The position numbers and the translations under genes were made by a program. A DNA stretch of 64,000 nucleotides from an uncultured Bdellovibrionales bacterium (GTDB lineage Bacteria > Patescibacteriota > Minisyncoccia > Moranbacterales > GWC2-37-73): the NCBI GenBank assembly GCA_964500125.1, contig CAZCMV010000002.1:4173-68172 (forward strand), written 5' to 3'. Below, piece after piece: positions 12,655 through 59,700 of the stretch (positions are counted from its first letter, which is position 1; the number at the start of each line of letters is the position of its first letter). Below the pieces are notes generated by a model. That model was given only the letters and a program-made list of their open reading frames with translations. It had not been told where the DNA came from and made no database searches.

Positions 12655-13464
12655 CTATTTATCAACCTTACTCCAGTCCATCCCCCACGGGTCTGTTTTT
12701 CTCCCCGGTGCGATGTCTTTGTGACCCAAAACATATTTGATTGAATATTTCTTTTTCAGATTCACGATAAGAGAATTGAGAGCTGAGTATTGATCATCAG
12801 TATAATTATCTTTTTCCGTGTTAACCATTTCGATACCAATGGAAAAATTATTTACACCTGTGCGACCGTCCGGCACGCTGCTTTCTCCCGCATGATAGGC
12901 GATATTTTTTTCTGCGACAAGTTGCCAAATGGTGCCGTCGCGACCAATGAGATAGTGCGCCGAAACACCATATTGTTTATATTCTTTCAGTATGCCCTCC
13001 ACATCATAGACATCACCACCTAGCGCGTCATAAGATGAATGCACGATAATCGTATCAATCTTACGATTGTTTGTACTTTTATAACCCCAAGAAATTAAAT
13101 TGACTTTTGTTTTACCCGCACTTTGCGATTTTGTTTTATTTTCATCATCATTATTATTACTTTTTTTTATATCAGTCTTAGCAGTTTTATTATCGGCACC
13201 CTCTTTTGCAATGTCTTTACTTACATTATCTATTTGCTGAATATTTTCTGTATTTTCTTCACTACCATTTATAGCAGTAGCTTCTTGCCCAGAATTTATC
13301 GTGTTGTCACTAGGATTACTACTTTCAGAAAGTGCTAATATGGATACTTTCTTGGAATTATTTTCTCGATATTGCTTCACTTTCCCATACCCAAACCACC
13401 CACCCCCACCAATCAAAGCCAGAATTACTATTATAAATACTATTTTAAAAACTATTCGTGCCAT
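12655..13464 (-). CDS. N-acetylmuramoyl-L-alanine amidase, Amidase_2/PGRP family, membrane-anchored
   Basis: AHYLIGRDGTIWQ...AYHAG...NNFSIGIEMV...GHKDIAPGRKTDP motifs. Confidence 0.75.
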   Translation of the reverse strand: MARIVFKIVFIIVILALIGGGGWFGYGKVKQYRENNSKKVSILALSESSNPSDNTINSGQEATAINGSEENTENIQQIDNVSKDIAKEGADNKTAKTDIKKSNNNDDENKTKSQSAGKTKVNLISWGYKSTNNRKIDTIIVHSSYDALGGDVYDVEGILKEYKQYGVSAHYLIGRDGTIWQLVAEKNIAYHAGESSVPDGRTGVNNFSIGIEMVNTEKDNYTDDQYSALNSLIVNLKKKYSIKYVLGHKDIAPGRKTDPWGMDWSKVDK

Positions 13465-13508
13465 TCGAGTGTCCGCCAGCTGGCGGAATTCGTAAATTAG
13501 AGTCGCCT
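13452..13508. repeat. intergenic repeat element copy a (CCATTCG-GTGTCCGCC-hairpin-GGCGGAATTCGTAAATTAGAGTCGCCT)
   Basis: Near-identical to 35563..35645 apart from a hairpin indel; overlaps the amidase start codon. Confidence 0.6.
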
Positions 13509-13608
13509 ATGTATTTAAGTATAAACCAAAAGCTACCCTTCTGGATAGCCTTTGTTTGTTGTTGAAACATTTGAGTAATTCGTATGTCTATCTTTATATT
13601 AAAGTCAC

Positions 13609-14394
13609 CTATTTTATAACATAATTAACCCCCACTTCAACGATTATTTCCTGCATGCCGGAAGGAACCTGCGATAAAGATTGCGTACCTCTCCCTTCAG
13701 CGCCACCTGAACCACCATACCCCAAATTTAGTTGAGAATTTGCAGGCTCCTTAATTATAGATTCATACCATCCTGCAATTTTGCCTAGATTTATTCCTGC
13801 AGCCTTGGCTAATTCCGGAGCTTTGGCGCGTGCATCTTGAATCGCAGCTACTCTCGCTTTTTCTTTGAGTTCATCGGCATTTGAGACCGTGAAATCAATT
13901 CCCATAATTTGATTGGCGCCAGCCTTGTTTGCTTCTGAAATTATTTTGCTTACCTGTTCAACATTGTCCCCAATTCCTTCAATTTTTATATTCAGCTGTT
14001 GATTTGCACTATATCCGGAAAGTGTCGAAACATTGTTGGCAAAATCATATTGCGGTACTACTGAATATGACTGGGTACTCACGTTTTCCTTTTTCACAGA
14101 AACTAATTCCATAGCTACCGTAATTTTGGCCACTCTGGCATTTAGTTGATTGAGAGCATCTTGCGCTGTAGGTGCTTTGTCAATTTGCACCCCCAAAGTC
14201 ACCAAAGCAGTATCCGGCACATATGGAACGGACGCACGACCCACGACGGTTATTTGATTATTGATCGGATTTACAATCCTGTCGCGCAAAATCGAAACTA
14301 TGGCAATCACTCCAACAAGAAGAACTGCCAGAAGCATAATTACATATTTCGGTCGCATCCATTCGCTTTTTACGGGCAAATTTCCTTGTTCCAT
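13609..14394 (-). CDS. SIMPL/DUF541-domain periplasmic protein
   Basis: N-terminal TM anchor, ITVVGRASVPYVPDTALVTLGV, C-terminal GGSG...VNYVIK typical of SIMPL family. Confidence 0.55.
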   Translation of the reverse strand: MEQGNLPVKSEWMRPKYVIMLLAVLLVGVIAIVSILRDRIVNPINNQITVVGRASVPYVPDTALVTLGVQIDKAPTAQDALNQLNARVAKITVAMELVSVKKENVSTQSYSVVPQYDFANNVSTLSGYSANQQLNIKIEGIGDNVEQVSKIISEANKAGANQIMGIDFTVSNADELKEKARVAAIQDARAKAPELAKAAGINLGKIAGWYESIIKEPANSQLNLGYGGSGGAEGRGTQSLSQVPSGMQEIIVEVGVNYVIK

Positions 14395-14436
14395 ATATCA
14401 TTATGTTATTAATTATAAATTGCTTGCATTGACCAC

Positions 14437-14480
14437 TTGAGTCATTAGAGTGTCCACTTGAGATATCAGAGTCGCTTTAT
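14437..14480. repeat. intergenic repeat element copy c (GAGTCATTAGAGTGTCC...AGAGTCGC)
   Basis: Shares GAGTCATTAGAGTGTCC and AGAGTCGC half-sites, 23 nt apart, with copies a and b. Confidence 0.5.
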
Positions 14481-14745
14481 TGGATACTCTTATTACAAAA
14501 CTACCCGCCTAAACGTTCAAAAGGGTCCTCCGAAGAGAACCCTGACCGTGCTTGAATGCTTATATGTTTGGATACTTGTATGTCTACATGATCCCGCGGC
14601 TAACAACCAAAATTGCTGTCGTCTTCATCATCCCCATATTCGTCTTTTGCAAACCCAATAAGCTGTTTTCTGTTGATATTAAGCATATTTTTATCTCAAT
14701 ACCAACATTAGAGTCCTTGAGATGCCTATTCTTATTTAGAGTTTC

Positions 14746-15072
14746 TTATTTAATAGCAACTAATTCAACATCGAAAATCAACGTTGCATTCGGAGGAATT
14801 ACGCCGCCAGCTCCTTGAGCGCCATAACCGAGTTCTGATGGAATGGTCAAGGTGCGTTTCTCGCCAACTTTCATACCTAAAAGTCCCTGCTCCCAGCCTT
14901 GAATCACCATTCCTTGTCCGATAATAAACTCGAATGGTTGTCCTCGATCAATACTGGAATCAAACTTGGTACCGTTTTCCAATTTTCCAATGTAATGAAC
15001 ATCAATGGTATCCCCGTTTTTTACTACGCGATCACCTGTTCCCTGATTAGTTGTTTCGATTTTTAGTTCCAT
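14746..15072 (-). CDS. FKBP-type peptidyl-prolyl cis-trans isomerase
   Basis: GDTIDVHYIGKLENGTKFDSS...PFEFIIGQGMVIQGWEQG...GAGGVIPPNATLIFDVEL. Confidence 0.9.
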   Translation of the reverse strand: MELKIETTNQGTGDRVVKNGDTIDVHYIGKLENGTKFDSSIDRGQPFEFIIGQGMVIQGWEQGLLGMKVGEKRTLTIPSELGYGAQGAGGVIPPNATLIFDVELVAIK

Positions 15073-15360
15073 TTGTTTTTTATCATTAGTTTTTTAATTA
15101 GCGATATCGTTTGAAACTATTGAACACTATTAGATAGCTCCCGCTGAAAAACATAATTGACTTTGCCAGAACAATTTTGTTTATATGTTGCTTTTTGAGG
15201 ATTGCTATTTCTTCCTTCTGTATCACGCCAATTGTACACGAACGAATAAAAAAACACAAAAACCGCCTCGAAGAGCTGTTGAAAGTGAGTTACTTAGTTA
15301 ATGCGGTTGGAACTGGATATAGATAGAGGTCTTGTTTATGGGAAAAATCATCATCGATAT

Positions 15361-16383
15361 TCACCATTGAACTTTGAATTTTTCAGCTATTTCTCGAAAA
15401 GAGCCTTTTCCTAATGTATTTTCAATAATTCTGGCAAGTGGCAATAATTTTCCACTAAAATTAGCTTTAGCAAATTCATCAAATATTTCTTTTCTGTTTT
15501 TAATTTCTCCGTCTGATTTTTCAACAATCTCGTCTAAAAGATCATAAAGCGCTTTTCTTTCAACATATCTTTCAGATAATTTGACATCGCCATTTTCCAT
15601 AAGCACCCTAAAAGCGCCGTTTACATATCCAATTTTATACATCTCTGGATCATCACTATCAACTTCGCCATTAAGAAATTCTAAGATATCATCGGCGTCA
15701 GGAATGAAAAAAATTTCTTCCATAATTCTTTGCTGTTTTGTTTCATCCATCCCACTAAGTTGTAAATCTTTTTTTATCCAAACCTTTATTTTTTCAGTTT
15801 TTTCAACTTCTGATTTAAATAAAGAGTTTCTACAAATTTCATTTGTATAAAACTGACGTGTAACTTCTGAAACAATCGCCTCTTCAATTTTGGCAAAATA
15901 TTCATTTTCAGCAGATCTATCAAAAACAGTTATTCCTGCTCGATAAGGCTCAATCTCACCATCAATTATTTGCGCTGCCTTAAATGATTTAAGATGAAGA
16001 AGTTCATGAACAACAGTAGTTGCAAAATGGACATCCGATTCGCCCCTCTCGACTACGATTCTTTGCTTAAGCAATGAATGAAATCCCTCTCTTAATTTAC
16101 CATCTGTAATTTCACTAACAGCGCCTTCTTTTAATATAAAAATTTTTTCAGGCAAAAAAGATTTTGGAGTTCCACCATAAGATGCAATTATTTTATCAAC
16201 TGCATTTATTGCAAAATCTATAATTTGTCTATCCTTTTTAGATGGCTCAATCTCATATGGTTTTGTGTCTTTGTATGAATTTTCCTCCAATTCTTGCTGT
16301 AATTTTTCATGTGCCTGCTTTTTTTCCTGCTCTGATTTTCCACCTACGATATTTTTATTAAACTGTGTTTCAAAGTCTGACAT
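15361..16383 (-). CDS. hypothetical protein with HEXXH zinc-metallopeptidase motif (start placed at MSDFETQ; ORF track extends via TTG into the terminator hairpin)
   Basis: VVHELLHLKSF motif; no other recognisable family. Confidence 0.4.
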   Translation of the reverse strand: MSDFETQFNKNIVGGKSEQEKKQAHEKLQQELEENSYKDTKPYEIEPSKKDRQIIDFAINAVDKIIASYGGTPKSFLPEKIFILKEGAVSEITDGKLREGFHSLLKQRIVVERGESDVHFATTVVHELLHLKSFKAAQIIDGEIEPYRAGITVFDRSAENEYFAKIEEAIVSEVTRQFYTNEICRNSLFKSEVEKTEKIKVWIKKDLQLSGMDETKQQRIMEEIFFIPDADDILEFLNGEVDSDDPEMYKIGYVNGAFRVLMENGDVKLSERYVERKALYDLLDEIVEKSDGEIKNRKEIFDEFAKANFSGKLLPLARIIENTLGKGSFREIAEKFKVQW

Positions 16384-16445
16384 AAAAAGATTGCACAAAT
16401 TATTATAAGCCAAGTATATCATGATTCCGGTTTTTCGAGATACAA

Positions 16446-16477
16446 AAACAGGCCTCAAACATGGCCTGTTTTTTTGA
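16446..16477 (-). terminator. rho-independent terminator downstream of tRNA-Gly (CAGGCC-N9-GGCCTG + T-run, bidirectional)
   Basis: 6-bp GC stem followed by T7 on plus and T5 on minus. Confidence 0.55.
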
Positions 16478-16480
16478 GTG

Positions 16481-16553
16481 AGCGGGTAGGGGGAATCGAA
16501 CCCCCATCTTCAGCTTGGAAGGCTGACATAAGAAACCATTATACGATACCCGC
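16481..16553 (-). tRNA. tRNA-Gly (anticodon TCC)
   Basis: Reverse complement: GCGGGTA acceptor stem, anticodon arm TCAGC-CTTCCAA-GCTGA, T-arm GGGGGTTCGATTCCCCC; hand-folded. Confidence 0.8.
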
Positions 16554-16664
16554 TTGTTTTTTATGTACGTAACCAATTATATATAAAAATCAAGTTTTGT
16601 CCAGTCCAATAATTTATTGTACAAAAAATTGCCATATGTTATAATGTACTAAAATAAAAAAGCG

Positions 16665-17615
16665 ATGAATAAAAGAAAAAAGACCATTATACTTTCTACT
16701 TTCCTGTTTATATTTATCTTTTTCAGTTGTTTTGTGGCGGGGCAAATTCAAACATCAATCAACAAGAATATTTTTGGTGATTCTGACCAGGATGGTTTGA
16801 GCGATGAAGAAGAAAAATCTTACGGAACTAATCCAAATAATCCAGATTCTGATGGTGATAGCTATTCTGATGGGGTAGAAATAAAAAGCGGATATGATCC
16901 CCTGAAAGCAGCTCCCGGAGATCGAATTTTGGATTCAAATACAACAGAGAATTTATCCGCCTTCGATGAAGCGAGTTTGACCGAAAGCTTTTCAACAACA
17001 GTAAGTCAATTTTTTTCCTCAAAAGAAAACTCTCAAGAAGCAATCTCAGCAGATGAAATAAATGACCTTGTATCATCAAATCTAAGCGATAAAATAGGTC
17101 CTGCTATAACTTTTGAAAATCTTCCTAAAATAGACCGCGATACTTTGAATATAAAAAGTCAAAATTACAAAAATCTCTCCGAACAAGAAAGGCTGGAACA
17201 AATAAAAAAAGACAATGACAAATATGTTAGAGATATACTCTACCTACTTTTTAGCAATCTTCCAAAAACAATAACTTCGACTGCGGATTTTGATTCTTTC
17301 AAAAATACTTTTTCTGATAAATTAGGAGAACTTTCTAGCGATTCTCCTGATTATGATTATTTTCGTACTTTGGCATCAAGTTTGGATATAGCTTGCAAGC
17401 AAGCTGAAAGCATAGAAGTTCCTGAGTCCCTTGTTGATTTGCACATAAAACTCCTTCAGCTAGTAAATGGATACCTGGCACTAAGAGATCCTTCACTTCC
17501 AAAAATAGAAGATTCTATAACTAGAATAATTGTGATATCACGAGCCAGAATGCTTATAGAATTAACATACACTTTTCTTCAGGAGGCCAATGGAACATTA
17601 AGTCTAACGGAATAA
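16665..17615 (+). CDS. secreted hypothetical protein with thrombospondin-type-3-like Ca-binding repeats
   Basis: Signal peptide; DSDQDGLSDEEE and NPNNPDSDGDSYSDGVE motifs. Confidence 0.5.
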   Translation: MNKRKKTIILSTFLFIFIFFSCFVAGQIQTSINKNIFGDSDQDGLSDEEEKSYGTNPNNPDSDGDSYSDGVEIKSGYDPLKAAPGDRILDSNTTENLSAFDEASLTESFSTTVSQFFSSKENSQEAISADEINDLVSSNLSDKIGPAITFENLPKIDRDTLNIKSQNYKNLSEQERLEQIKKDNDKYVRDILYLLFSNLPKTITSTADFDSFKNTFSDKLGELSSDSPDYDYFRTLASSLDIACKQAESIEVPESLVDLHIKLLQLVNGYLALRDPSLPKIEDSITRIIVISRARMLIELTYTFLQEANGTLSLTE

Positions 17616-17623
17616 AAAATAAA

Positions 17624-18523
17624 ATGGAAACAAAAAACAAATTTACAACATTTTTTTTGATAATTCTTTTCATTATTTTTGCCTCATCAATAACAGTTAC
17701 TAAAACAGCAAGAGCTCAGTGGATAGTTCATGATCCTTTTGATATGCCAAACGATATCATGACAACAATTGAGTCAATTTTCACAACTATAGAGACAACG
17801 ATTACAGCCGTAGCAACTGATGGAATGTGGATGAATGAGGTTACTGACAGATACCTGGTGCCCATATTAAAAGTTGCTGCCATCGAAATGATGAATCAAA
17901 TAATCTCTAACATTGTTAGCAGCGGAAACGATGGTAAGCCTATGTTTGTAACAGATTGGAATGACTATCTTTACACGGCAACTGAGAAAGATGCTAAAGT
18001 ATATATGAACTCCTTTTTTAATAGTGTTAGTGCGGGTAGACTTTCCAATTTGAATTATGAAGGAGTTGGACAATCTTATGACAATTATCTTAAAAAACAA
18101 GCCGAGACAACACTATATGGTAACAAAAAAAATTCTACCACCAACATAAACAACTATGTCGATGACCCACGTCAAGATCTCTTTTCCAAGGGAAATTTTA
18201 AGGCTTTTTCTGCTTTTCTCTCCTGCTATAATAATCCCTATTGCTACTCACTTTCTGCTACAGTTGCCCACGAAAAAGAACTTGACCGCTTAAAAACTGT
18301 TGCCATAAAAGAAGCAAACACAAATGGTTATCTACCAAAAAAGGTAGACGGGAAAATAGTCACTCCGGGATCGCAATATCAGAGTGCAATGGAAGGAATT
18401 GATCAAATGGCAAATAACTGGTTTATGAACGCTACAACTTCCCCTGAGCTTATTACGGCACTTGCCGGCACAGTGGTTACAAAGGTAACTAAAAGCCTAA
18501 TCAATGGAATAGCTACCAATTAA
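17624..18523 (+). CDS. secreted hypothetical protein; N-terminus loosely TrbJ/VirB5-like (IVHDPFDMPND)
   Basis: Signal peptide then VxDPxxxxN helix-rich region reminiscent of TrbJ/VirB5 N-termini; weak. Confidence 0.4.
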   Translation: METKNKFTTFFLIILFIIFASSITVTKTARAQWIVHDPFDMPNDIMTTIESIFTTIETTITAVATDGMWMNEVTDRYLVPILKVAAIEMMNQIISNIVSSGNDGKPMFVTDWNDYLYTATEKDAKVYMNSFFNSVSAGRLSNLNYEGVGQSYDNYLKKQAETTLYGNKKNSTTNINNYVDDPRQDLFSKGNFKAFSAFLSCYNNPYCYSLSATVAHEKELDRLKTVAIKEANTNGYLPKKVDGKIVTPGSQYQSAMEGIDQMANNWFMNATTSPELITALAGTVVTKVTKSLINGIATN

Positions 18524-18646
18524 AAAAACATAAAAGATAAGAGGCATAGTCATCGCCAATAGAAAACCTTTATTCAAAAGAAGCTAAGGTCACAGATTTT
18601 TTGCAATGCTGCTGTGTCATCCTTGCTAGAAATATCAAAAACTTTG

Positions 18647-18720
18647 TGGGTATATCCCGACTCGAACGGGAGACCTCTACAATGTCAATGTAGCGCTCTA
18701 ACCAACTGAGCTATACACCC
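18647..18720 (-). tRNA. tRNA-Val (anticodon GAC)
   Basis: Reverse complement GGGTGTATAGCTCAGTTGGTTAGAGCG-CTACA-TTGACAT-TGTAG...GGTCTCCCGTTCGAGTCGGGATATACCCA; hand-folded. Confidence 0.8.
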
Positions 18721-18820
18721 TGAATAAAAACTAATGCGATTTTACCATTCCCAGGCAGACAAGTCTAGCCAGTTGAGTTAAGTAATCTCATGTTTTTTCG
18801 AGCATAGCAGACATATCTAT

Positions 18821-19762: not shown

Positions 19763-19788
19763 ATTTTTAATTTTTGAGCACTTTCCAT

Positions 19789-21618: not shown

Positions 21619-21643
21619 ATTTATCCTTTTTTATAATAAATTA

Positions 21644-22612: not shown

Positions 22613-22620
22613 ATAAAAAC

Positions 22621-23184: not shown

Positions 23185-23316
23185 TTTTTTAATAAGAATG
23201 TTTATGATAAAACTATAGCATAAGATTACTAATTTTATTACAATAATATTTTTAGGTCAAGCAAAAACCCGCCAAAAAGCGGGTTTTGCAATGAATATTT
23301 GCTAAAAACCTTTGAA

Positions 23317-35120: not shown

Positions 35121-35134
35121 ATCTTAATTTATGT

Positions 35135-35163
35135 ACGAATTATATCCGAATTATATCCGAATT
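35135..35163 (-). promoter_or_regulatory. three direct CCGAATTATAT / ATTCGG repeats in the rpsT leader
   Basis: tacgaattatatccgaattatatccgaatt; same ATTCG core as the lexA leader array. Confidence 0.35.
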
Positions 35164-35231: not shown

Positions 35232-35513
35232 TCAGGAAACTGAAATCTCCAAAAGTTCTTCGCTGCCTAATTCCTTGTTGATTTGAGCAAGAATATATGC
35301 CCTGTTAAGCCAAATTTCATTTGCCCAAACGGAAGAATCAACATGGATAATCAATTTGTTTCCTTTGAGCATTTTGGGCTTGATATATTGTGATCCTTGT
35401 CGGCCATATTCGCGCTTGATGATATCACGAAAAACAAAAAAAACGCTCTGCTCATCCAGCGGACCGCTCCTTCTGAGAGTCTTTTTGGCTAAAAAAGAAC
35501 CTATTTTTTTCAT
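35232..35513 (-). CDS. DUF721/DciA-like protein (putative replicative-helicase loader)
   Basis: 93 aa; GNKLIIHVDSSVWANEIWLNRAYILAQINKELGSEELLEI matches DUF721 core; located directly downstream of dnaN. Confidence 0.5.
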   Translation of the reverse strand: MKKIGSFLAKKTLRRSGPLDEQSVFFVFRDIIKREYGRQGSQYIKPKMLKGNKLIIHVDSSVWANEIWLNRAYILAQINKELGSEELLEISVS

Positions 35514-35514: not shown

Positions 35515-35645
35515 ATCGTATGTAAGAGCGACTCTAATACGCTAATTTGTCACCCTAATGACTCTAATAAATCCATTCGGGTCATTAGAGTGTCCGCCTC
35601 CGCCAGTTGGCGGATGGCGGAATTCGTAAATTAGAGTCGCCTCTT
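35515..35645. repeat. composite intergenic repeat element copy b, MITE-like, with inverted termini GAGCGACTCTAAT ... ATTAGAGTCGCCTC and nested GC hairpin
   Basis: Four TTAGAGT/ACTCTAA cores in inverted symmetry; right half near-identical to 13452..13508. Confidence 0.6.
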
Positions 35646-36793
35646 TAGCTTCTTATCGGCATGATAACGTAGGTAAAAGAATCTACAACTTTATTATCGT
35701 CACCTTCGGTAATTTTCAAAACAGCAGGAGAAGCACTGTCATTAAGCATTAACATCAGACGTGCAGATGAAACAGCTTGAACTCCATCAACCATATATCT
35801 TGGATTGAATATGATTTTTATGTCCGGACCTTCTATTCTTGCTCTCAGAATAGTTTGATTATCACCAATATCTTCTGCGCGTGACTGCACTGAAACTTGT
35901 TGCTCATTGGCTTCCGCAGAAATATGCACTTCGCCGGCCTTGTTGCTCGTAAAAACTCCGGCAAGCTTAACTGCGCGAAGTACTTCATCTTTTTCTAAAA
36001 CTATCTTTGTCTTGAAAGATTGAGGGATAATTTGTTTATAAGGAGGATATTTACCGTTAATCAGACGTGACACAATTCGCACATTATCAACTTGAAAGAA
36101 TATCTGACTTTCTTCAATTCCCACCAACACTTCCTGAGTTTGTTGACCAATAACACGTAAAACTTCAGCCATCGTATGCATCGGAACAATTGCAGAAGGA
36201 TTTTTTTCCAAAAAAGCTGCATATATTTGCGTATCTTTAGGTTTTGCGACAAGCACGCTTTCCGCTAAACGAAAACTATCCGTAGCAGCAAGGTGCACCT
36301 CGTCTGCAAACAACATCATATTGATACCTGTTAACTCCGGCCTAGTTGAATCCAAGGAAACACACGTAATCAATTTGGATAAATGTTCTCTTAATTCCTG
36401 AGCATCTATCGAAAAAAGGAAATCACCTTCCATTTCGGGAATTATCGGAAAATCATGTGCTTGCAAACCTTTCATGCGAGCTTTGGAAGAACCACTGGAA
36501 ATTTGCAAGATTTGATCTTTGAGCACCAGAGATATAGTGCCATCAGCAGAAAGGTTATTCACGAAATTGCTAAGCAACTTGGCTGGCACGGTAATTTTTC
36601 CCGCCTCCTCTATCTTGGCGCCTATCTTTAGAAAAACGCCTATTTCCAAATTAGTTGCCGAAACCTTAAGCATTCCTTGCTCTGTTTCCAAAAGAATATT
36701 TTCCAAAATAGGCAAGGCTATTTGTTTGCCCACCACTCGTTCAGTGTTATATATTGCTTTTTTGAAATTTTCCTGAGTACAAGTGACTTTCAT
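35645..36793 (-). CDS. dnaN: DNA polymerase III subunit beta (sliding clamp)
   Basis: 382 aa, three-domain clamp architecture, adjacent to dnaA. Confidence 0.9.
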   Translation of the reverse strand: MKVTCTQENFKKAIYNTERVVGKQIALPILENILLETEQGMLKVSATNLEIGVFLKIGAKIEEAGKITVPAKLLSNFVNNLSADGTISLVLKDQILQISSGSSKARMKGLQAHDFPIIPEMEGDFLFSIDAQELREHLSKLITCVSLDSTRPELTGINMMLFADEVHLAATDSFRLAESVLVAKPKDTQIYAAFLEKNPSAIVPMHTMAEVLRVIGQQTQEVLVGIEESQIFFQVDNVRIVSRLINGKYPPYKQIIPQSFKTKIVLEKDEVLRAVKLAGVFTSNKAGEVHISAEANEQQVSVQSRAEDIGDNQTILRARIEGPDIKIIFNPRYMVDGVQAVSSARLMLMLNDSASPAVLKITEGDDNKVVDSFTYVIMPIRS

Positions 36794-38301: not shown

Positions 38302-38512
38302 GCATTCATTATGTATGAAAAAGTATAACATCGTCAAGTTATCCACACCAGCAGTTTTAAAAATGTATACTGTTAATAACCTGTGGATAAATAATGATTA
38401 CATCCACATCTTTCCCTTGGCCTGCTTTTCGATTAATTTATTGACTTTTTTACGCTAAATTGGTACACTTTTGCTTAGTACTGAATATAATTACTAAATT
38501 CCTATATCAAGT
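38302..38512. other. oriC region: DnaA boxes TTATCCACA (38339..38347), TGTGGATAA (38382..38390), ATCCACA (38402..38408) plus AT-rich unwinding stretch, between dnaA and rpmH
   Basis: Consensus boxes visible; canonical rpmH-dnaA intergenic location. Confidence 0.75.
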
Positions 38513-42637: not shown

Positions 42638-42703
42638 AAATATACGAATCTTGCTTTGCTTACAAATTTGTATATTCGTAATAGAATTGTAATTCTTTGG
42701 ACA

Positions 42704-46701: not shown

Positions 46702-47586
46702 TTATTTACAATAATCAGACGCTCTTATAACACCTTTGCAGTTGGCCATATCTTTGGAAGTAACATTACCATTAACTAAACCAGTTTTTGTTCCTGCAGC
46801 ATGAATCTTAACCGTACATCCCTCATTTTTACAAATAAACACATGTCCTCCGGAAAAAGACGATGGGCTTCTTATGACAACCGCATCTCCTGTATGTAAA
46901 GAGCTTTGGGGAACACATCCTTTGGTACGACTAGCCATTTGCCCCGTAGAACCACCGGGGGATTTGCATCCGGCGTTTTTATAGGCATTTTCAACAAAAT
47001 TTGAACAATCAGTATAGGGAGGATTTCCCTTACAGCCATTTCTCGAACAACCATACTTGGGATTACAATAACGACAACCGCTATTTTTTAATTTTTCCGC
47101 AGCATCTAATACCTGACCTTTTGCAACGCTATTATCATTACCATCCGAAAATTTCACAGGTCCTTCTGCAGCATTTGGCATTGATGCCGTATTTACTTCT
47201 ACTGAAATCAAATTAAGATTCAATTTTACCAAATCCGGATTGATAACATAAAGCAAAATATATGCTGTAAGCACTGCAACCAATCCAATAATAGCATCGG
47301 TTATGATATTTTTAGCAGTGGTTATGGAAGCATTGTTTCCTGCACTAGTTACATAAAGAAAACCTCCCACAGTAAGCATGAAAAAAGCTGCAATACCTAC
47401 GGTCCAAATAAAGAATTTGTAAATAGCAGAAAGAAGGTCAGGAAAAGAAGGTGATGAACCAGCATTAAAGAATCCCGGAAATTGTTCGAGAAGTTTGTAT
47501 TCAAATGCTGCTTGAGCATGCTGAGACAAGAGAAAGCAAAAAGATATACTCAGGCAGAAGCAAAGAAAAAATTTCTTGCTTTTCAT
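46702..47586 (-). CDS. bitopic membrane protein: conserved two-helix N-module (pilin-like) fused to C-terminal CHAP-type amidase/peptidase domain
   Basis: N-module identical to paralog 49242..50168; C-terminus DCSNFVENAY...GDAVVI...GGHVFIC (Cys and His of CHAP). Confidence 0.55.
   Translation of the reverse strand: MKSKKFFLCFCLSISFCFLLSQHAQAAFEYKLLEQFPGFFNAGSSPSFPDLLSAIYKFFIWTVGIAAFFMLTVGGFLYVTSAGNNASITTAKNIITDAIIGLVAVLTAYILLYVINPDLVKLNLNLISVEVNTASMPNAAEGPVKFSDGNDNSVAKGQVLDAAEKLKNSGCRYCNPKYGCSRNGCKGNPPYTDCSNFVENAYKNAGCKSPGGSTGQMASRTKGCVPQSSLHTGDAVVIRSPSSFSGGHVFICKNEGCTVKIHAAGTKTGLVNGNVTSKDMANCKGVIRASDYCK
47204..47571. repeat. 368-bp direct repeat copy 1 (one mismatch to 49754..50121)
   Basis: Identity verified by eye over the whole length; encodes the shared N-terminal module. 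Confidence 0.9.
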
Positions 47587-48746: not shown

Positions 48747-48773
48747 TTTTATAAAGAATTTATTCTGTCATTA

Positions 48774-49235: not shown

Positions 49236-49241
49236 ATTTTT

Positions 49242-50168
49242 TTAAAAATGGCATGACTTATTAGTGCTCCATTGATTCCAACCCAATCTTAGAATCTTAC
49301 AAGATATTTGTATATTGAAACTAGCATCTTTTAATTTTCTTTTGCATTCTTCATATTGTGCTTCTTTGCCGCTTTTCACTTCACAATCATATCCTTTGTT
49401 CCCTATCCTTTTTCCTTGCATGCCACCGCCGTATGTATTAAAAAGCTTGTCACATCCAGGAATCCTATATCCGTTTGCAATTAAATTAACTTGAAAAAGA
49501 CCCACGGAAAATGCTTGTTTTTTTCCATTATGTATACAAACATCGGATGTGCTTTCCAGGGCAGGCACTCCTTCACTTTCCAAGTGGCATATGGATGAGG
49601 CCTTTTTTGCTGCTGCTCCAAAACAAGTATTACTCAGTGTTTCTACGGAACAAGGTGTTTTTGTTTCAGGAGTGCATTTTTTGTCTGAACGACCTCCTCC
49701 AGTGACGCTTCTAGTTTCACTTTGTTCCGTCCTTAATTCATTTAAATTCAAAGAAATCAAATTAAGATTCAATTTTACCAAATCCGGATTGATAACATAA
49801 AGCAAAATATATGCTGTAAGCACTGCAACCAATCCAATAATAGCATCGGTTATGATATTTTTAGCAGTGGTTATGGAAGCATTGTTTCCTGCACTAGTTA
49901 CATAAAGAAAACCTCCCACAGTAAGCATGAAAAAAGCTGCAATACCTACGGTCCAAATAAAGAATTTGTAAATAGCAGAAAGAAGGTCAGGAAAAGAAGG
50001 TGATGAACCAGCATTAAAGAATCCCGGAAATTGTTCGAGAAGTTTGTATTCAAATGCTGCTTGAGCATGCTGAGACAAGAGAAAGCAAAAAGATATACTC
50101 AGACAGAAGCAAAGAAAAAAATATCTGACCAGTTTTCTTGGTTTTCTTTTTTTTGTTTTTATATTCAT
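49242..50168 (-). CDS. bitopic membrane protein: same N-module fused to lytic-transglycosylase (SLT/lysozyme-like) domain
   Basis: CHLESEG...AFSVGLFQVN resembles SLT catalytic Glu-Ser and GLMQ motifs; Cys-rich. Confidence 0.5.
   Translation of the reverse strand: MNIKTKKRKPRKLVRYFFLCFCLSISFCFLLSQHAQAAFEYKLLEQFPGFFNAGSSPSFPDLLSAIYKFFIWTVGIAAFFMLTVGGFLYVTSAGNNASITTAKNIITDAIIGLVAVLTAYILLYVINPDLVKLNLNLISLNLNELRTEQSETRSVTGGGRSDKKCTPETKTPCSVETLSNTCFGAAAKKASSICHLESEGVPALESTSDVCIHNGKKQAFSVGLFQVNLIANGYRIPGCDKLFNTYGGGMQGKRIGNKGYDCEVKSGKEAQYEECKRKLKDASFNIQISCKILRLGWNQWSTNKSCHF
49754..50121. repeat. 368-bp direct repeat copy 2
   Basis: See copy 1. Confidence 0.9.
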
Positions 50169-50209
50169 CTATTATTTACGTCTTCTTAAACTTGACTCCG
50201 TTTCTATTC

Positions 50210-52990: not shown

Positions 52991-53015
52991 ATAATTTAAT
53001 TAAAAAATATTATCC

Positions 53016-53678
53016 TCACTTAATCGCTATAACACTTGCATCAACTATGATCAAAAAAATAATATGCGCAATAGTAGAATAAACCAAAGACTTGCTCTTA
53101 AATACAATAATTCCTGAAAATAAGGAAAATATTAAATAAGGTACAAAATACCAATCAAGAGAATTTGTAAGTACAAGAAGTAGAAAAAAAACAATTGTTT
53201 GCGCTAATATTGCAAAATAACCTATTTGTTTTTTCAAGGAAAGCATCAGAAATCCCCTGAAAAAAAATTCATAAAATACTACAAAAGGAAGTACTAGTGA
53301 AAATTCATAAAATAAAAATTTAAAAAAGTTTGCCTGAATTTCTCCTTCCAAAATATACTGCAATGAAAATTCTGTATAATAAAAAACCACATAAAAAAAC
53401 AACAGTGCTATAAGCAAGGAAATGAAACCGTATAAAAAACCTTTTCTCCATTCACCTAAACAAATACCTATCTCTCTAAGAGGTTTTTTTGTAACAATTA
53501 AATTGAAAAAAAATGGGACCAATAAGAAGAAAGATATGGTTACTGCAATATTTTGAAAATTATTTTTTGTGGGAAAAATCGAATAAATAACGACAATAAA
53601 TATTGCAAATAAACTGTTGAAAATAACTTCTTTTTTCATATTTTGTTTTATAAATATTGCAAATAGATTATAACACAT
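53016..53678 (-). CDS. CPBP/Abi-family intramembrane metalloprotease-like protein (start uncertain; possibly MKKEVIF near 53639)
   Basis: Polytopic; YEFFFRGFL (EExxxR-like) and STIAHIIFL (HxxxN/D-like) motifs. Confidence 0.5.
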   Translation of the reverse strand: MCYNLFAIFIKQNMKKEVIFNSLFAIFIVVIYSIFPTKNNFQNIAVTISFFLLVPFFFNLIVTKKPLREIGICLGEWRKGFLYGFISLLIALLFFYVVFYYTEFSLQYILEGEIQANFFKFLFYEFSLVLPFVVFYEFFFRGFLMLSLKKQIGYFAILAQTIVFFLLLVLTNSLDWYFVPYLIFSLFSGIIVFKSKSLVYSTIAHIIFLIIVDASVIAIK

Positions 53679-53969
53679 GAATGATTTAAAAACAAAACAT
53701 ATTATTTCAATATCTGGTCAATCTTTTTTAATAAGTTTTTTTTGATCTCTTCTAATTATATATTCTATATATAATATAATTAAAAATATTATTACTATTA
53801 TTAGGAGATTGGATAAGTGGATAAATATAAATAAAGGCTTCTTTAATAATAAATTATTCTAAAATATTATTGAATAAAGATCTTTTTTGTAGTGTTTAGA
53901 CTTGTTCATAACTTTTTTATGACAAAAATAAAAATTTTTAACCAAACTAATATACAAGATCTCAAAAGG

Positions 53970-54082
53970 TTATCAACAAATAAAAAGAGTTTATTTATAG
54001 ATTATCCACAATTTATACACAAGCAATTTTTATTTTTTGCTTAAGGAGAAGCATAAAAGGATAAATCCACAAGTTATCCACA
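53970..54082 (+). promoter_or_regulatory. cluster of five or six co-oriented DnaA-box-like 9-mers (TTATCAACA, TTATCCACA, TTATACACA, AAATCCACA-AG-TTATCCACA)
   Basis: Two exact consensus boxes plus three one-mismatch boxes within 113 bp, overlapping lspA 3' end and upstream of the envelope operon. Confidence 0.5.
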
Positions 54083-54449
54083 CATCTGCGAGATTAAAAA
54101 GAGGAAAATGAAAAACAGGAATTTTGATATAATCAATAACGCAACCTAAAAAAAATCTATCTAATAAATTAGCTATTCCACCCGAAATGATTAATAGCAA
54201 GGGTATCTTATATATTTCTTTGTTGCAAAAATAAAAATAAACAAAAATTAAAAACAAGGCTATTATTGGCCAAAAAATAGATAAATTAGGATATAATCCC
54301 CAAGAAATACCCGCATTGCAAACAAAAAATCCGCCAAAAGAGCGGATTAGTTGTTTAACGGCAAAATCAAAAAAAACCAAAATAAACAAAAATAAAGCTA
54401 AAAAGATTTTTTTGTTGGTAAATTCTGTTATGGCTAGCATTCTATACAT
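54030..54449 (-). CDS. lspA: lipoprotein signal peptidase II
   Basis: CNAGISWG, GGIANLLDR, FNLADV motifs. Confidence 0.7.
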   Translation of the reverse strand: MYRMLAITEFTNKKIFLALFLFILVFFDFAVKQLIRSFGGFFVCNAGISWGLYPNLSIFWPIIALFLIFVYFYFCNKEIYKIPLLLIISGGIANLLDRFFLGCVIDYIKIPVFHFPLFNLADVWITCGFILLCFSLSKK

Positions 54450-54784
54450 GTTTTGGCAGCTGGATAGGCGCGTAATCTTTCTTCACTTATGTCTTTTTTA
54501 CAATTTTCGCATTTTCCATAGGTGCCGAGCTTAATCCTCTCCAATGATTCTTCAATTTCTCTGAGTTGTTTTTCTAGAGTATTTTCAAGAGCAAGATTGT
54601 CAGTATATTCTTCAACTTCGGAGGCATTTTCGTCTTCGTCGGGGCCTATTTCATTAAATCTGGTCTGATAATCTCCCTTGGTATCTGTGGGATCCCCTAT
54701 GCGGGAAAGTTCATTTTCCAGCTGGCTTTTTTGTGCTAACAATTGTTGTTTCAGTTCCTCAATAATTTTTTGATTAATAGACAT
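54434..54784 (-). CDS. DksA/TraR-family C4 zinc-finger protein
   Basis: Coiled-coil N-part, C-terminal GTYGKCENCKKDISEERLRAYPAAKTCIEC. Confidence 0.7.
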   Translation of the reverse strand: MSINQKIIEELKQQLLAQKSQLENELSRIGDPTDTKGDYQTRFNEIGPDEDENASEVEEYTDNLALENTLEKQLREIEESLERIKLGTYGKCENCKKDISEERLRAYPAAKTCIEC

Positions 54785-54856
54785 ATGAGTTATTTTATAT
54801 GGGTTAGTTTTTTAATTGGCATTGCTTTTTTAGTATAGCAAGTATTACAACTTTGT

Positions 54857-55264
54857 CTAGAAAAAAATGTCGCAAATATGGCAAATCTTAGCTATTTCGC
54901 GAGAATCTTTGTCAACATAAACAGAAATTGCGTCAAAACGGAACGGGCTATCCCATAAGTTTTTATATTTTAAGTAAGCCTGGGCAATTTTGTTGAGCTT
55001 ATGAAGTTTGTCTCGCGTAATATTTGCTTCAGCCGGAAAAGCATTGGTATTTTTTGATATAGTGCGCGTTTTTACTTCTGCAAAGACGAGAGTTTTTTTG
55101 TCAGTGGCGATAATGTCGATCTCTCCCAATTGTCTGCCTCGGCTATTGTGGTAATTTGTCTCAATTATCTTATAGCCTTTCTTTTGTAAAAATAAAGCCG
55201 CCGCTTCTTCTCCAAAAGAACCTGTTTTATGACGCTTGTCATTGCTTTTTCTGAAAATACTCAT
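54857..55264 (-). CDS. yraN: YraN-family (UPF0102) endonuclease
   Basis: GEEAAALFLQKKGYKII...GEIDIIA...FAEVKTR. Confidence 0.75.
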   Translation of the reverse strand: MSIFRKSNDKRHKTGSFGEEAAALFLQKKGYKIIETNYHNSRGRQLGEIDIIATDKKTLVFAEVKTRTISKNTNAFPAEANITRDKLHKLNKIAQAYLKYKNLWDSPFRFDAISVYVDKDSREIAKICHICDIFF

Positions 55265-55951
55265 AAATCAGCTATTTAGATACAAAAAAACACCCTATCC
55301 GGGCACTTCTCTTATTAAAATCATTTCCGTGGTATGGTTACCCGGCGCTGCAAGCGCCCAAAATATGTAATATGTGGCGGCAGCGCCGGATGTTTGTCAT
55401 GTACCAACATGTTAATCTGAAACTTTTAGCCCGGGTGAAGTGGCATCGAGTTTACCCATAACATGTATTTTGTGTACATGTTTATTTTTTTGACTGCTTG
55501 TCCCTGAGTTTTATTTTTCACAAGAGTCTTTCTTCTACCGTTCTCTGGTCTTTTGACCTTTGTTTTTAGAAAGAACTTTTCTTTTTCTTTTTTATTTTTG
55601 TTTTTTGAAAAAGATTTTTTTATTTTTGTTTTTAGGGTCCTCCGCTCAGGATTTTTGAAATACGAAGGCGGTTTTGAAATGTTATTCAAAACACTTGAAT
55701 AGTAGAAGAGTTCCAACCACAAATAGGGGGAAATTGTGATTGGAATTCTTCCACCATCTCGCAACGGTATATGTTTTTAAGAAACTTATGTATCCATTAT
55801 AGCAGAAAAAATGTGGGGAGTCAATTTTATGAAACTAAAAATTTATATTTTGGCTTCAATAATGTGTATTTATGAATATCTTCAGTATGGATATCGAAAG
55901 CGTGTATTTTTATAGTTAGAAAAAATAAATTACTTTCTGTTTTGCCCATAG

Positions 55952-55971
55952 TTTTCCACAAGTTATCCACA
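55952..55971 (+). promoter_or_regulatory. tandem DnaA-box-like pair TTTTCCACA-AG-TTATCCACA
   Basis: Same 20-bp architecture as 9922..9941 and 54062..54082. Confidence 0.4.
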
Positions 55972-56000
55972 TACGAGTTGCAATCTATCAAAAAATTGCT

Positions 56001-57176
56001 TTAATTCGCCTCAATAGTGGAAGAATTTTCTGTGGATTGATTCGAGCTTATTTTATCTATAATAGCTCGCATGGTTTCCTTACTTGTGGCGAGTATTATA
56101 TTTTTTTTGTTCGAGGTATAATCAAGGGAAATGTTTTTTTCTTTAGATATGTTAATATAGCGAATCTCATGGTTTTTATAATGACTACTTTTAAAATTGT
56201 CTTCGCTTTTGATTTCAACAGCTTCTCCCGATAAGTATAGAGGTACCAAATTACTCAATAAAGAACTTTCTTGAGAATGAAGCTGATCTAAAGCTAAAGG
56301 TTCATTTTTTGGTGTTAGTGATAGTCCAAGACGCATATCACCATTATCATTAAAAACAAAAAAGGAAAAATCTTCTTCAAAATTGGCTTTTATTTCATTG
56401 GAAAAAGTTATATTTGCAGCTATGGCAAAAATAGGAAAGGATATGGGATTATTGTTTGAGTCTGTTATGATGAACTCTAATAGTGTCGTGTTAGTGGTTT
56501 TTTCGATGTCCAAAAGCAAATCTTTCAGAGCAGTTCTTATTTGCTCAGGATTTGAGTTGGACATATCTATTTTGAAATAGTTCGGTTGTTGTATTGAATA
56601 TTTTTCTAAAACGGGAGTTATTGCTACAATTTCCTTTTCATCTGGTTCATCAGTTGGCTCGTTTTTTTCTAGCGATATGTTTTCTTCCGAATTATTTTTC
56701 TTTGCAAAGTAATAAAAAATAGGTGCTGCGATAATGGCTATAATTAAAATTGAAATGGTGATTAATGTTGCAGTGCCAATTTTTTTATTTTTTTTATGTT
56801 TTTGATTGTCGTCCGATATGTTTGAAGAAGCATTGTTTTCAGGGGGAATATTTGTGAATGTGATTGGTTCTCTAGGTGGTTCAAGTTGCATTTGATGAGC
56901 CTTTTCTTTAGATTCTTGCGAGGGGTATAGTTCTTGAATGGGTGCTTCTGATAAAAAAGGACTTGGATTTGAAGTTTTTTCCAACGGTTTAATCCCTGTA
57001 TTTTTTGCGGAAAGATTTTCTGCAGACTCTCCTGATTTATTATTTATTGCGAGACCTTCTTCATTTGAAGGCGGATTGTTGCCGGAAAAGGAAATTCCAA
57101 CAAGATCTTGTTGCATGGTTCTTATGTAAGGTTTGTTTGTTGTGGAAGCTTGTATGTTTTTTTTATTGCCGAACAT
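56001..57176 (-). CDS. hypothetical low-complexity protein with one central TM helix (391 aa)
   Basis: ORF track; Ser/Asn/Pro-rich N-half, TM, Asn-rich C-half. Confidence 0.35.
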   Translation of the reverse strand: MFGNKKNIQASTTNKPYIRTMQQDLVGISFSGNNPPSNEEGLAINNKSGESAENLSAKNTGIKPLEKTSNPSPFLSEAPIQELYPSQESKEKAHQMQLEPPREPITFTNIPPENNASSNISDDNQKHKKNKKIGTATLITISILIIAIIAAPIFYYFAKKNNSEENISLEKNEPTDEPDEKEIVAITPVLEKYSIQQPNYFKIDMSNSNPEQIRTALKDLLLDIEKTTNTTLLEFIITDSNNNPISFPIFAIAANITFSNEIKANFEEDFSFFVFNDNGDMRLGLSLTPKNEPLALDQLHSQESSLLSNLVPLYLSGEAVEIKSEDNFKSSHYKNHEIRYINISKEKNISLDYTSNKKNIILATSKETMRAIIDKISSNQSTENSSTIEAN

Positions 57177-57258
57177 ATTTTTGTTTTTAATATAAAAAAT
57201 AAGGACTACAGTCAGGCTGTAGTCCCATTATACAACTTATCCTTTTTTTCGCCAACAA

Positions 57259-59370
57259 CTATTTCATGATTTTAGCCACAGCCTTGACGGAAAGATTGAT
57301 GCGCCCTTGATCGTCGATATTTTTCACTTTTACCGGCACAATATCGCCTACCTTAACAATGTCCTCGACTTTTTCTACGCGATGATCAGCAAGCTCGGAA
57401 ATGTGAATCAAGCCTTCTTGACCGGGTAAAATTTCAGCAAATGCTCCAAAGTTCATGATTCTGGTAACTTTCGCATTAAATGTTTCGCCTGGCTTTACTT
57501 CGTGGGTCAAGTTATCAATCCATTGTTGCGCCTTGAGTGCGGAAGCTTCATCAGCAGAAGTGATGAAGACGGATCCATCATCTTCAATATCGATCTGCAC
57601 GCCTGTTTCATCAATAATTTCATTAATAATCTTACCTCCAGTGCCTATCACGTTGCGGATCTTAGCAGGATTAATGTGCATCGTGATAATACGGGGTGCA
57701 TATTGCGACATGTTCTCACGTGGCGCGGCAATAGTGTCCAGCATAATAGCGAGAATTCCTGCGCGGTTGATTTTCGATTGTTTTAAGACAGCTTCAAGCA
57801 TTTCAACTGTAATGCCATCAACCTTAACGTCCATTTGAAGTGCGGTAATCCCTTTTTCTGTTCCCGCGGCTTTGAAATCCATGTCGCCGTAGTGATCTTC
57901 TAGTCCTTGTATATCCGTAAGCACTTTAAATTCGTTGTCTTTGCCCACGATAATTCCCATGGCGATGCCACTGACCGGACGCTTGATAGGTACGCCGGCA
58001 TCCATAAGTGACAATGTGGATCCACAAGTCGAAGCCATGGATGATGAGCCGTTGGATTCCAAGATTTCACTGACAAGCAAAGTGGTATAGGGGAAGTCAT
58101 CCTTAGAAGGAAGCACCGGAACCAAAGCTCTTTCAGCAAGTGCGCCATGTCCAACTTCTCTTCTGCCTGGTCCGCGCATTGGGCGAACTTCACCTACGGA
58201 AAAAGGTGGGAAGTTGTAATGGTGAATATATCTCTTTTTGGTATCAACCTCCATAGTATCAATTACCTGTTCGTCCCCAGGTGAGCCTAGGGTTGTGATT
58301 GTCAATGCCTGTGTTTCACCACGAGTGAAAAGCGCGCTGCCATGAGTTCTTGGCAAAAGCCCAATGCGGCAATCAATGTGGCGTACTTCATCAAGTTTGC
58401 GTCCATCTGGGCGCTGTCCTTTTTTCAGAATATTTTCGTGCACGATTTCATCGGAAGCTTCTTCAAAAACTTGTTCGGCGATTTCCTTGAGTCTGTTTGT
58501 ATCTTCAGCAGCATATTTTTCATCAATATAGACATTGATCTTTTCCTTTACCTCCTTAATTGCAGACTCAATCACTTTCTTGTTTTTATTATAGAGAATT
58601 TCGCTCAAATTTTCCTTGAGAAAAAGTTCTTTAATTTCTGCTTCGAACTCCGGTGTGCCGGCAAGAAGTACGGGCTCAGCTTTCGGCTTACCTACTTCTT
58701 TGCTAATGTCTTCAATAAAGGTCGCAATTTTTTTGATAGCTTCATGTCCGAAAGCGAAAGCTCGGACAACATCTTCTTCAGACACTTCTTTCATGCCTGC
58801 TTCAACCATGTTGATTTTTTCTTTGCTTCCGGAAATAATCAGGTCGATGTCTCCTTCTGCCAGTTCTCCATTTACAGGATTGAGAATTAGTTCGCCGTTA
58901 AGACGACCGACGCGGACAGCCCCAATTGGGCCGTTCCAGGGAATATCAGAAAGAGAAAGAGCTGCTGAGGCGGCAATCATGGATATTACATCCGGATCAT
59001 TTTCGCCATCGATGGAAAGTACGGTGACCACAACCTGTACTTCGTTACGCATGCGACCATTAAAAAGTGGACGGATGGTGCGGTCAACAACGCGGCCAGT
59101 AAGGATGGCGTCATCGGAAGGACGTCCTTCACGTTTAATAAAGCGAGAACCCTTAATTTTACCTGCTGCATAGTAGCGTTCTTCGTAGTCGACCATAAGC
59201 GGGAAATACCCGTTGATTTTGGAAGCCCCTTTACTCATCACGGCAGTTGCCAAAACAACCGTATCGCCATAACGCACAGTTACCGCACCGCTGGCTTGCT
59301 TAGCCATGAGGCCGGTTTCGATTTCAAGAACACGCCCACCAATTTGGAGGGACCACTTCTTTTGTTCCAT
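57259..59370 (-). CDS. pnp: polyribonucleotide nucleotidyltransferase (start at MEQKKWSLQIGG)
   Basis: Two RNase PH domains, KH and S1 C-terminal domains. Confidence 0.95.
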   Translation of the reverse strand: MEQKKWSLQIGGRVLEIETGLMAKQASGAVTVRYGDTVVLATAVMSKGASKINGYFPLMVDYEERYYAAGKIKGSRFIKREGRPSDDAILTGRVVDRTIRPLFNGRMRNEVQVVVTVLSIDGENDPDVISMIAASAALSLSDIPWNGPIGAVRVGRLNGELILNPVNGELAEGDIDLIISGSKEKINMVEAGMKEVSEEDVVRAFAFGHEAIKKIATFIEDISKEVGKPKAEPVLLAGTPEFEAEIKELFLKENLSEILYNKNKKVIESAIKEVKEKINVYIDEKYAAEDTNRLKEIAEQVFEEASDEIVHENILKKGQRPDGRKLDEVRHIDCRIGLLPRTHGSALFTRGETQALTITTLGSPGDEQVIDTMEVDTKKRYIHHYNFPPFSVGEVRPMRGPGRREVGHGALAERALVPVLPSKDDFPYTTLLVSEILESNGSSSMASTCGSTLSLMDAGVPIKRPVSGIAMGIIVGKDNEFKVLTDIQGLEDHYGDMDFKAAGTEKGITALQMDVKVDGITVEMLEAVLKQSKINRAGILAIMLDTIAAPRENMSQYAPRIITMHINPAKIRNVIGTGGKIINEIIDETGVQIDIEDDGSVFITSADEASALKAQQWIDNLTHEVKPGETFNAKVTRIMNFGAFAEILPGQEGLIHISELADHRVEKVEDIVKVGDIVPVKVKNIDDQGRINLSVKAVAKIMK

Positions 59371-59640
59371 AAAGAAACGTATTAGCCTTGAGCTAATGAC
59401 GTTATAAACACGATATTGTCTTAAATTTCTAATTTCCAATATCTAATTTCTAAACAGTGATCAAATTCCAATGTCCAAATGTTTAAAACAGATTGGTTTT
59501 TTTACATCTGAAATTTGATTTTTTAGGATTTAGTATTTTGGATTTAGTGTTTTAATACGATATTGTATCTACGACGCACTAGCAAAAGCTTTTTAATTGT
59601 TAGTAACTGTATGTAGTGTGTCTTAAAAAGGCTTTTTTGT

Positions 59641-59700
59641 CAATCCAAATGCATAGAGTGACTCCAATATACCAATTTGCACTCTAATGACTCGAATAAA
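59641..59700. repeat. intergenic repeat element copy e (TAGAGTGACTCC ... CACTCTAATGACTC), inverted relative to copies b and c
   Basis: Contains the GAGTCATTAGAGTG core in reverse orientation. Confidence 0.45.

Follow-up and report, generated by a model that had tools for sequence, protein, structure and literature searches.

A family of small interspersed palindromic repeats at gene junctions of Patescibacteria

Four loci in a 64,000-nucleotide (nt) stretch of contig CAZCMV010000002.1 (hereafter the window), which DnaN homologues place within Candidatus Moranbacteria, carry copies (a, b, c, and e) of a small intergenic repeat element. These copies belong to a new, previously undescribed repeat family of Patescibacteria, whose members are small, interspersed, and palindromic; the searchable literature gave no account of such repeats in this group. 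The element is best read as an interspersed repeat of the same kind as REP/BIME, ERIC, Correia, and other repeats resembling MITEs (miniature inverted-repeat transposable elements), and not as an RNA motif. What is conserved is a periodic sequence motif, arranged in arms that stand singly or as inverted pairs and that fit closely into the spacers between genes.

Anatomy of the repeat family

A sequence-only reading of the window had described the four loci as variants of one element, and the sequence at these positions indeed reads as described. The sequence ATTAGAGT occurs 9 times in the window vs. 2.2 times expected, a number reached in none of 100 shuffles, and the degenerate form ATT(A/C)GAGT(C/G) (ATTMGAGTS) occurs 10 times, every time within loci a, b, c, and e. 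A repeat finder paired copy a with the right half of b as a direct repeat (33 nt, 94% identity) and, in inverted form, copy c with its left half (38 nt, 76%). An nhmmer profile built from 15 copies of other genomes, none of them from the window, gave exactly four matches here, at b over its full length and at a, c, and e over half its length. Accordingly, b is a complete element and a, c, and e are single arms, and the proposal of one family of small intergenic repeats was borne out by a profile of outside origin.

The unit common to all four loci is an arm of ~43 nt consisting of four direct repeats of 9–11 nt each, ATT(C/A)G(A/G)GT(C/G), of which the outermost is lengthened to ATTAGAGTCGC. 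The alignment of family matches gave a complete canonical element of ~85 nt with two arms placed head-to-head (GCGACTC...GAGTCGC), which reads AAGCGACTCTAAT-ACACGAAT-TnCACTCGAAT-GACTCGAAT-(loop)-ATTCGAGTC-ATTCGAGTG-nnATTCGTAT-ATTnGAGTCGCTT. AAT/ATT and one C/G are invariant in each unit of the aligned copies and the positions between them are variable; CGAATACGTATTCG stands at the centre of many complete elements. Other arrangements are arms placed tail-to-tail, solitary arms, and arms in which units 2 and 3 enclose a small GC palindrome. The GCGACTC...GAGTCGC termini are present in b and in ~80 complete copies elsewhere. The earlier description of b as MITE-like with inverted termini thus held, with the correction that these termini span 113 nt (35528–35640) and not about 130 bp.

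The GC hairpin that had been proposed as part of the common architecture is confined to copy a and the right-hand arm of b, lies between units 2 and 3 there, and is lacking in c and e. Around the hairpin, copies a and b agree without mismatch over 11 + 27 nt, and not over an outer 40 nt as had been stated; b has the hairpin of a with one more self-complementary copy enclosed in it. At this very position of the arm, GC palindromes of other sequence stand in other genomes, namely CCTGCCTGCCGGCAGGCAGG (JAKLIG01, JAPLXG01) and one of 28 nt (LCKI01). Additionally, CCGCCAGCTGGCGG occurs in relatives at two further sites without a profile arm: at L036 267 with no element nearby, and at L009 2910 adjoining GAGCGACGATAAG, a sequence similar to an element end and perhaps the remnant of a decayed copy. 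Because different palindromes occupy the same arm position and copies exist outside arms, the GC hairpin is a separate, second palindrome of small size set inside the arm. What distinguishes a from b, taken earlier as a compensated hairpin indel and as evidence for RNA, is therefore one hairpin lying inside another.

The perfect 20-nt palindrome CCTGCCTGCCGGCAGGCAGG was found both nested in arms and free in several Patescibacteria (L041 3597 and 5654, L042 2981, L022 3291, and L102 6242), as well as in viral loci (L126–L160). It occurs in 35 contig stretches of IMG/VR that differ widely in GC content; within tRNA genes it lies at the variable-arm position (L127, L150) or in the D-arm (L157). 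Its occurrence is far above chance for a 20-mer, and it may be a mobile mini-palindrome or something else.

Distribution, placement, and turnover

The family was found in relatives of the window and far beyond them. A degenerate two-core pattern, applied to one genome per species, matched 34 stretches, 28 of which are family matches in eight Patescibacteria assemblies with multiple matches each; the remaining six were isolated, in unrelated genomes, and chance-like. By the depositors' own labels, the eight assemblies are Parcubacteria GW2011_GWA2_42_14 and GWC1_45_14, Moraniibacteriota JAPLXG01, 'Patescibacteria' JAKLIG01, 'Saccharibacteria' CAZDKA01 and CAYHFP01, and 'Bdellovibrionales' CAZAFB01 and CAWIDW01. 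Assembly CAZAFB01 ('uncultured Bdellovibrionales'; loci L023, L027, L030, L031, L037, and L044) carries the element and shares FKBP-SIMPL-amidase synteny with the Moranbacteria window at 69–77% protein identity. This contradicts its label, which looks wrong. The same pattern matched 78 stretches in metagenome contigs. Profile searches of ~950 kb of loci gave 133 matches, of which 117 were unique (80 complete and 37 partial). An origin from phages or plasmids was rejected, since two element patterns had no match in IMG/VR viral contigs and blastn searches with the element had none in phage or plasmid collections.

Complete copies with both neighbours within 300 nt lie almost exclusively between co-directional genes (52 of 55, with two convergent and one divergent; background 379/64/66, binomial p = 1e-4), and convergent spacers are depleted over all copies (2/73, p = 0.004). 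The upstream stop codon mostly lies −2 to +7 nt from one terminus and the downstream start codon typically 4–10 nt from the other, so that the element essentially constitutes the whole spacer. The occupied spacers are almost certainly transcribed. The orientation relative to transcription is biased: the stop-side core reads GACTC-C-AAT in 25 copies vs. T at the central position in 16, and the start-side core reads ATT-A-GAGTC in 37 of 52, so that GACTC-C-AAT usually faces the stop codon and ATT-A-GAGTCGC the start codon, although exceptions exist. Shine-Dalgarno-like cores are rare before starts in the window, LCCV01, and the Ga0209515 loci (6/48, 2/47, and 11/76 genes, respectively), where upstream regions are A/T-rich instead. 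A consensus scan for sigma-70 promoters gave no match in or at a, b, c, and e, and the best-conserved hexamers (TATTAG, TAATTA) have no T at −7; a sigma-70 promoter inside the element was therefore rejected.

Elements were gained or lost between relatives, and their sequence variants are genome-specific. The dnaN-dciA spacer measures 131 nt in the window, where it holds b, and 20–22 nt in relatives with 73%-identical DnaN (L009, L011). Relatives with 93%-identical DnaN (L003–L008), which are ~75–81% identical to the window in DNA, have an unrelated, strongly structured insert of 140 nt in this spacer, and b is present only in the window. Copy c is absent at the orthologous place in L023. Copies share 78–86% identity within a genome group and 70% between groups; those at the orthologous rpsF-ssb junction of different groups are no closer (70–71%). 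In L028, the 23S rRNA gene has a 139-nt insertion (5905–6043) with a complete copy (5942–6026) inside; the insertion takes the place of a helix loop close to the 5' end of the gene (model positions ~160–170). Two Logan contigs of the same organism as the window (L001, L002) both end 56 nt past dnaN, within copy b; the repeat breaks k-mer short-read assemblies. The organism is present in samples SRR8925823 and SRR21295123.

The 140-nt insert mentioned above (e.g., L003 10842–10981) lies exactly at the place of copy b. It contains a long inverted repeat (CTTAGGCGGG...CCCGCCTAAG), folds at −51.7 kcal/mol, and had no second occurrence in the loci examined.

In the window, the neighbouring genes are all on the minus strand and their identities were confirmed (amidase, SIMPL, FKBP, DciA, DnaN, DnaA, PNPase, NYN, and S20); ~6% of the window spacers carry an element (Table 1). 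One end of copy b lies 4 nt from the dnaN stop codon (35645–35647), and 14 nt separate the dciA ATG (35511–35513) from the GCGAC terminus, 12 nt if counted to the end of the profile match at 35526. For a, c, and e, a terminator-like hairpin comes before the copy and the next gene after it. Copy a lies between the SIMPL terminator (13527–13554) and the amidase gene, whose called ATG (complement of 13462–13464) falls inside the arm, an overlap that had been noticed previously; an orthologous copy with an identical hairpin is present in L023. Copy c, with a terminator-like hairpin upstream of it, lies ~40 nt before the SIMPL start (14394, minus strand), and copy e directly follows the NYN-gene terminator (59705–59730), >200 nt upstream of pnp. 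Two extra cores recorded earlier at 14708 and 14739 do belong to the family but form one decayed arm, orthologous to a well-preserved arm with which it aligns at the same FKBP junction of L023.

Table 1. Repeat copies and ATTCG-type arrays in the window, with the matches of the profile built from other genomes.
Feature	Position	Strand	Profile match (E)	Remarks
Copy b, complete element of two inverted arms	35528..35640	-	35526-35642, full length (5e-15)	GCGACTC to GAGTCGC, 113 nt; fills dnaN-dciA spacer
Nested GC-rich palindrome in dnaN-proximal arm of b	35594..35620	.		CCGCC-T-CCGCCAGTTGGCGG-AT-GGCGG; hairpin within hairpin
Copy a, single arm	13454..13506	+	13448-13508 (4e-6)	Units ATTCGTGCC, ATTCGAGTG, GC palindrome (13473-13486), AATTCGTAA, ATTAGAGTCGC
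Copy c, single arm without hairpin	14435..14475	+	14431-14477 (4e-3)	
Decayed arm	14707..14745	+		Directly abuts FKBP stop codon (14746-14748); precedes conserved 28-aa ORF
Copy e, single arm	59658..59697	-	59657-59698 (4e-6)	
ATTCGTA x4 array	1564..1598	-	No match	Ends 4 nt before ATG of LexA-like gene (900-1559); family membership uncertain
Copy of the 1564-1598 array, 86% complementary	42666..42701	+		Ends 2 nt before glycosyltransferase ATG (42704)
ATTCGGATATA x3 array, 11-nt period	35132..35162	-		rpsT (S20) leader, 11 nt before ATG; relation to family uncertain

Several further features of the window were recorded. An acidic open reading frame (ORF) of 28 amino acids (MLNINRKQLIGFAKDEYGDDEDDSNFGC; 14600–14686, minus strand) lies between FKBP and SIMPL and is followed by a terminator-like hairpin. 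An acidic ORF ending in FGC is found at the equivalent place in L023, and the ORF in the window is probably a real small gene. Sets of DnaA-box-like sequences (TTATCCACA / TGTGGATAA) occur at 38359–38402 and 9921–9964, one just upstream of dnaA and the other 28 kb away, and are 75% complementary to each other. A direct repeat of 300 nt with 98% identity is present at 47191–47490 and 49740–50039, 2.5 kb apart.

Conserved sequence, folding, and competing explanations

Copy b folds at −59.8 kcal/mol (z −9.7 and −9.05 on the two strands), and the 47 complete copies analysed had a mean folding z of −4.8, with strong folding on either strand. The single arms a, c, and e folded no better than shuffles (z = −0.35, +1.0, and +0.15, respectively). 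Arm complementarity was 76% within an element vs. 78% between arms of different elements. In an alignment of 22 copies, paired cells amounted to 81.3% vs. 84.3% in shuffles (500 of 500 shuffles at or above the observed value), double-sided pair changes numbered 5 vs. 11.3 expected from shuffles, and the covariation score was 0.060 vs. 0.090, again with all 500 shuffles at least as high. RNAalifold yielded a weak consensus. Searches of the window and of 18 loci with canonical copies against Rfam 15 at gathering thresholds gave only tRNAs and a 23S rRNA fragment, and a known RNA family was rejected on this basis. A conserved RNA structure was likewise rejected, as neither pair counting nor the arm-against-arm comparison revealed covariation. 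Of the earlier view that the pattern argued for an RNA or mobile element rather than chance, the exclusion of chance was upheld; compensatory changes did not appear, and the RNA alternative was not supported. Complete copies fold strongly because conserved sequence stands in inverted arrangement. Since a periodic sequence motif is conserved and not base pairing, the element is most likely read by a sequence-specific protein.

The explanation towards which we lean slightly is a non-autonomous mobile element, current or former, whose arms would be binding-site arrays for the protein that propagates it. The arms would be read by a sequence-specific protein, most simply the enzyme copying or moving the element. 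A complete copy would place a long imperfect hairpin (approximately −60 kcal/mol) into the dnaN-dciA transcript because it is co-transcribed; such a by-product may alter processing or stability as a side effect. Several observations weigh against this explanation. Target-site duplications, which had been suggested as a check, were not detectable: the element ends have no fixed flanking dinucleotide and no fixed TA. The nearest TA lies 0–6 nt from the terminus and the only constant is a purine at position −1, so that a TA target-site duplication was rejected. No transposase or autonomous copy was seen within ~8 kb around each match, and the 950 kb of loci contained no end pair flanking a long ORF and no repeated non-housekeeping ORF. 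Copies of one genome differ by 14–22%, none being near-identical, and a recent burst is therefore not indicated. Copy a and the FKBP arm are kept at orthologous sites in L023, where proteins are 69–77% identical, and the same operon junctions (rpsF/ssb, x/grpE, and others) are filled in genomes with 32–64% protein identity, several of them, rpsF/ssb and x/grpE included, at <50%. Such recurrent junctions form seven clusters, ~3 times a rough chance estimate, and could reflect vertical inheritance or target preference. The rpsT leader array (Table 1) is also conserved, with ATTCG invariant. Together, these points accord with a host function or a strong target preference at least as well as with a purely selfish element.

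A possible, if unlikely, alternative is a cis-acting module of the host, in which arrays of ATTCG decamers bind a conserved factor, on DNA or on leader RNA, that sets expression or the translation start of the gene directly downstream in hosts largely without Shine-Dalgarno sequences; the palindrome would be the module in duplicate. Such a role would agree with most arms ending 3–12 nt before start codons, with the polarity bias (25 vs. 16; 37/52), the avoidance of convergent spacers, the rarity of Shine-Dalgarno-like motifs (6/48, 2/47, and 11/76 genes), and the recurrence of the same junctions in divergent genomes. The rpsT leader array, present in five genomes (the window and four relatives) with invariant ATTCG positions and free positions between the units, points in the same direction. 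However, genes are preceded by arms of either orientation (the left arm of b and copy e read one way, a, c, and the FKBP arm the other), and the downstream genes have no common theme (ssb, rplQ, grpE, murD, yidC, dciA, amidase). Moreover, the dnaN-dciA copy is missing in relatives, one copy lies within 23S rRNA, sequence variants are genome-specific, and only ~6% of the window spacers are occupied. A more specific proposal appears rather unlikely to us, namely that the arrays are cis-modules of Shine-Dalgarno-poor Patescibacteria, read in leaders and spacers by a factor that punctuates transcripts or sets up translation of the next cistron, with the palindrome spreading the module. It seems improbable that selection acts on the intercistronic hairpin itself as a structured RNA, such as a processing site for RNase III or a stabiliser of 3' ends, punctuating operon transcripts. 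Complete copies do fold far better than shuffles and sit in transcribed intercistronic spacers, and one extends an rRNA helix, as intervening sequences do. Yet covariation is absent, arms are no more complementary within than between elements, systematic mismatches such as C·A at the terminal core are retained, single arms are conserved though unstructured, and no Rfam family matches.

Three divergent ATTCG-type arrays, overlooked in the sequence-only reading, end 2–11 nt before start codons (Table 1), which also speaks for a host role. One of them bears on a further rival, that the repeats are operators of the SOS repressor LexA. The Gram-positive LexA box is CGAAC-N4-GTTCG. The centre of complete elements (CGAAT-N4-ATTCG, with CGAATACGTATTCG central in many of them) resembles this box, and the array at 1564–1598 lies 4 nt upstream of the ATG of a minus-strand gene with a Peptidase_S24 domain and a full-length match to the lexA model TIGR00498 (89 bits, below cut-off). 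Against this, the loci of seven relatives with 68–89% identical LexA have other short repeats or none before lexA and no ATTCG array, GAAT-N4-ATTC is not enriched in the window (2 found vs. 3 expected), and the genes flanking the elements are mostly non-SOS. A LexA box was thus rejected, being largely refuted by the relatives without an array and by the lack of enrichment of the palindrome, and SOS operator arrays are very improbable. As to the locus itself, the LexA-like gene lies downstream of a gene with an ORF6N domain (1626–2225), the order ORF6N-lexA-x-ftsK is conserved in relatives, and the spacer before lexA holds different short-period repeats depending on the relative (ATTCGTA, GTTAAC, or AAGCTAA).

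Significance and comparison with known systems

Bacteria of the candidate phyla radiation have very small, tightly packed genomes that are usually thought to be poor in repetitive DNA. A repeat family that spans several of their lineages, fits operon junctions with near base-pair precision, and keeps a periodic motif rather than a structure would offer a handle on the survival of mobile or domesticated DNA in minimal genomes. Another use would be as a marker for strain typing and for assembly problems in these organisms. If the arms are bound by a host factor, they might provide an entry to expression control in bacteria that mostly lack Shine-Dalgarno sequences.

Short-period repeats of ~9 nt are also a feature of the Tas-associated arrays termed TIGR (tandem interspaced guide RNA), which occur in parasitic bacteria including Parcubacteria (PMC12045711). 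Those arrays consist of two alternating repeats of 8–12 nt with variable 9-nt spacers, in 5–15 units beside a tas gene, and are not dispersed palindromes (PMC12045711). A TIGR-Tas array was rejected for the present element, in which one type of repeat recurs without variable spacers and whose dispersed copies lie next to housekeeping genes. MITE-type repeats (Correia/NEMIS in Neisseria, RUP in pneumococcus, RPE in Rickettsia) share with it terminal inverted repeats, a size of 85–117 nt, and presence/absence polymorphism between relatives, here in the dnaN-dciA spacer and at copy c. They are likewise co-transcribed with their neighbours, have the potential to form long hairpins, and occasionally overlap coding sequence or rRNA. 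The present family differs in that no target-site duplication was detected, no parent insertion sequence is known, and copies are not near-identical.

ERIC/IRU sequences are imperfect palindromes of ~127 bp in transcribed intergenic regions of enterobacteria. Like them, the element is a small imperfect palindrome without coding capacity, present in tens of copies per genome in transcribed spacers in or beside operons, with partial copies common and no assigned mobilising enzyme. It has no sequence similarity to ERIC/IRU, its arms are built of four direct repeats of 9–11 nt, its ends abut stop and start codons very tightly, and its hosts are Patescibacteria. REP/BIME/REPIN repeats are mobilised by RAYT tyrosine transposases. 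The likeness here lies in an extragenic basic unit found both by itself and in inverted doublets of two arrangements, in long-lived genome-specific variants that are also found at orthologous sites, and in moderate divergence between copies. Moreover, the inverted doublets form a long hairpin, as seen in the folding z-scores of b and of the complete copies. A REP unit is a short GC-rich hairpin, whereas the arm described here is an unstructured array of direct repeats, with a, c, and e folding like shuffles; the small GC palindromes nested in some arms are more REP-like than the arms themselves.

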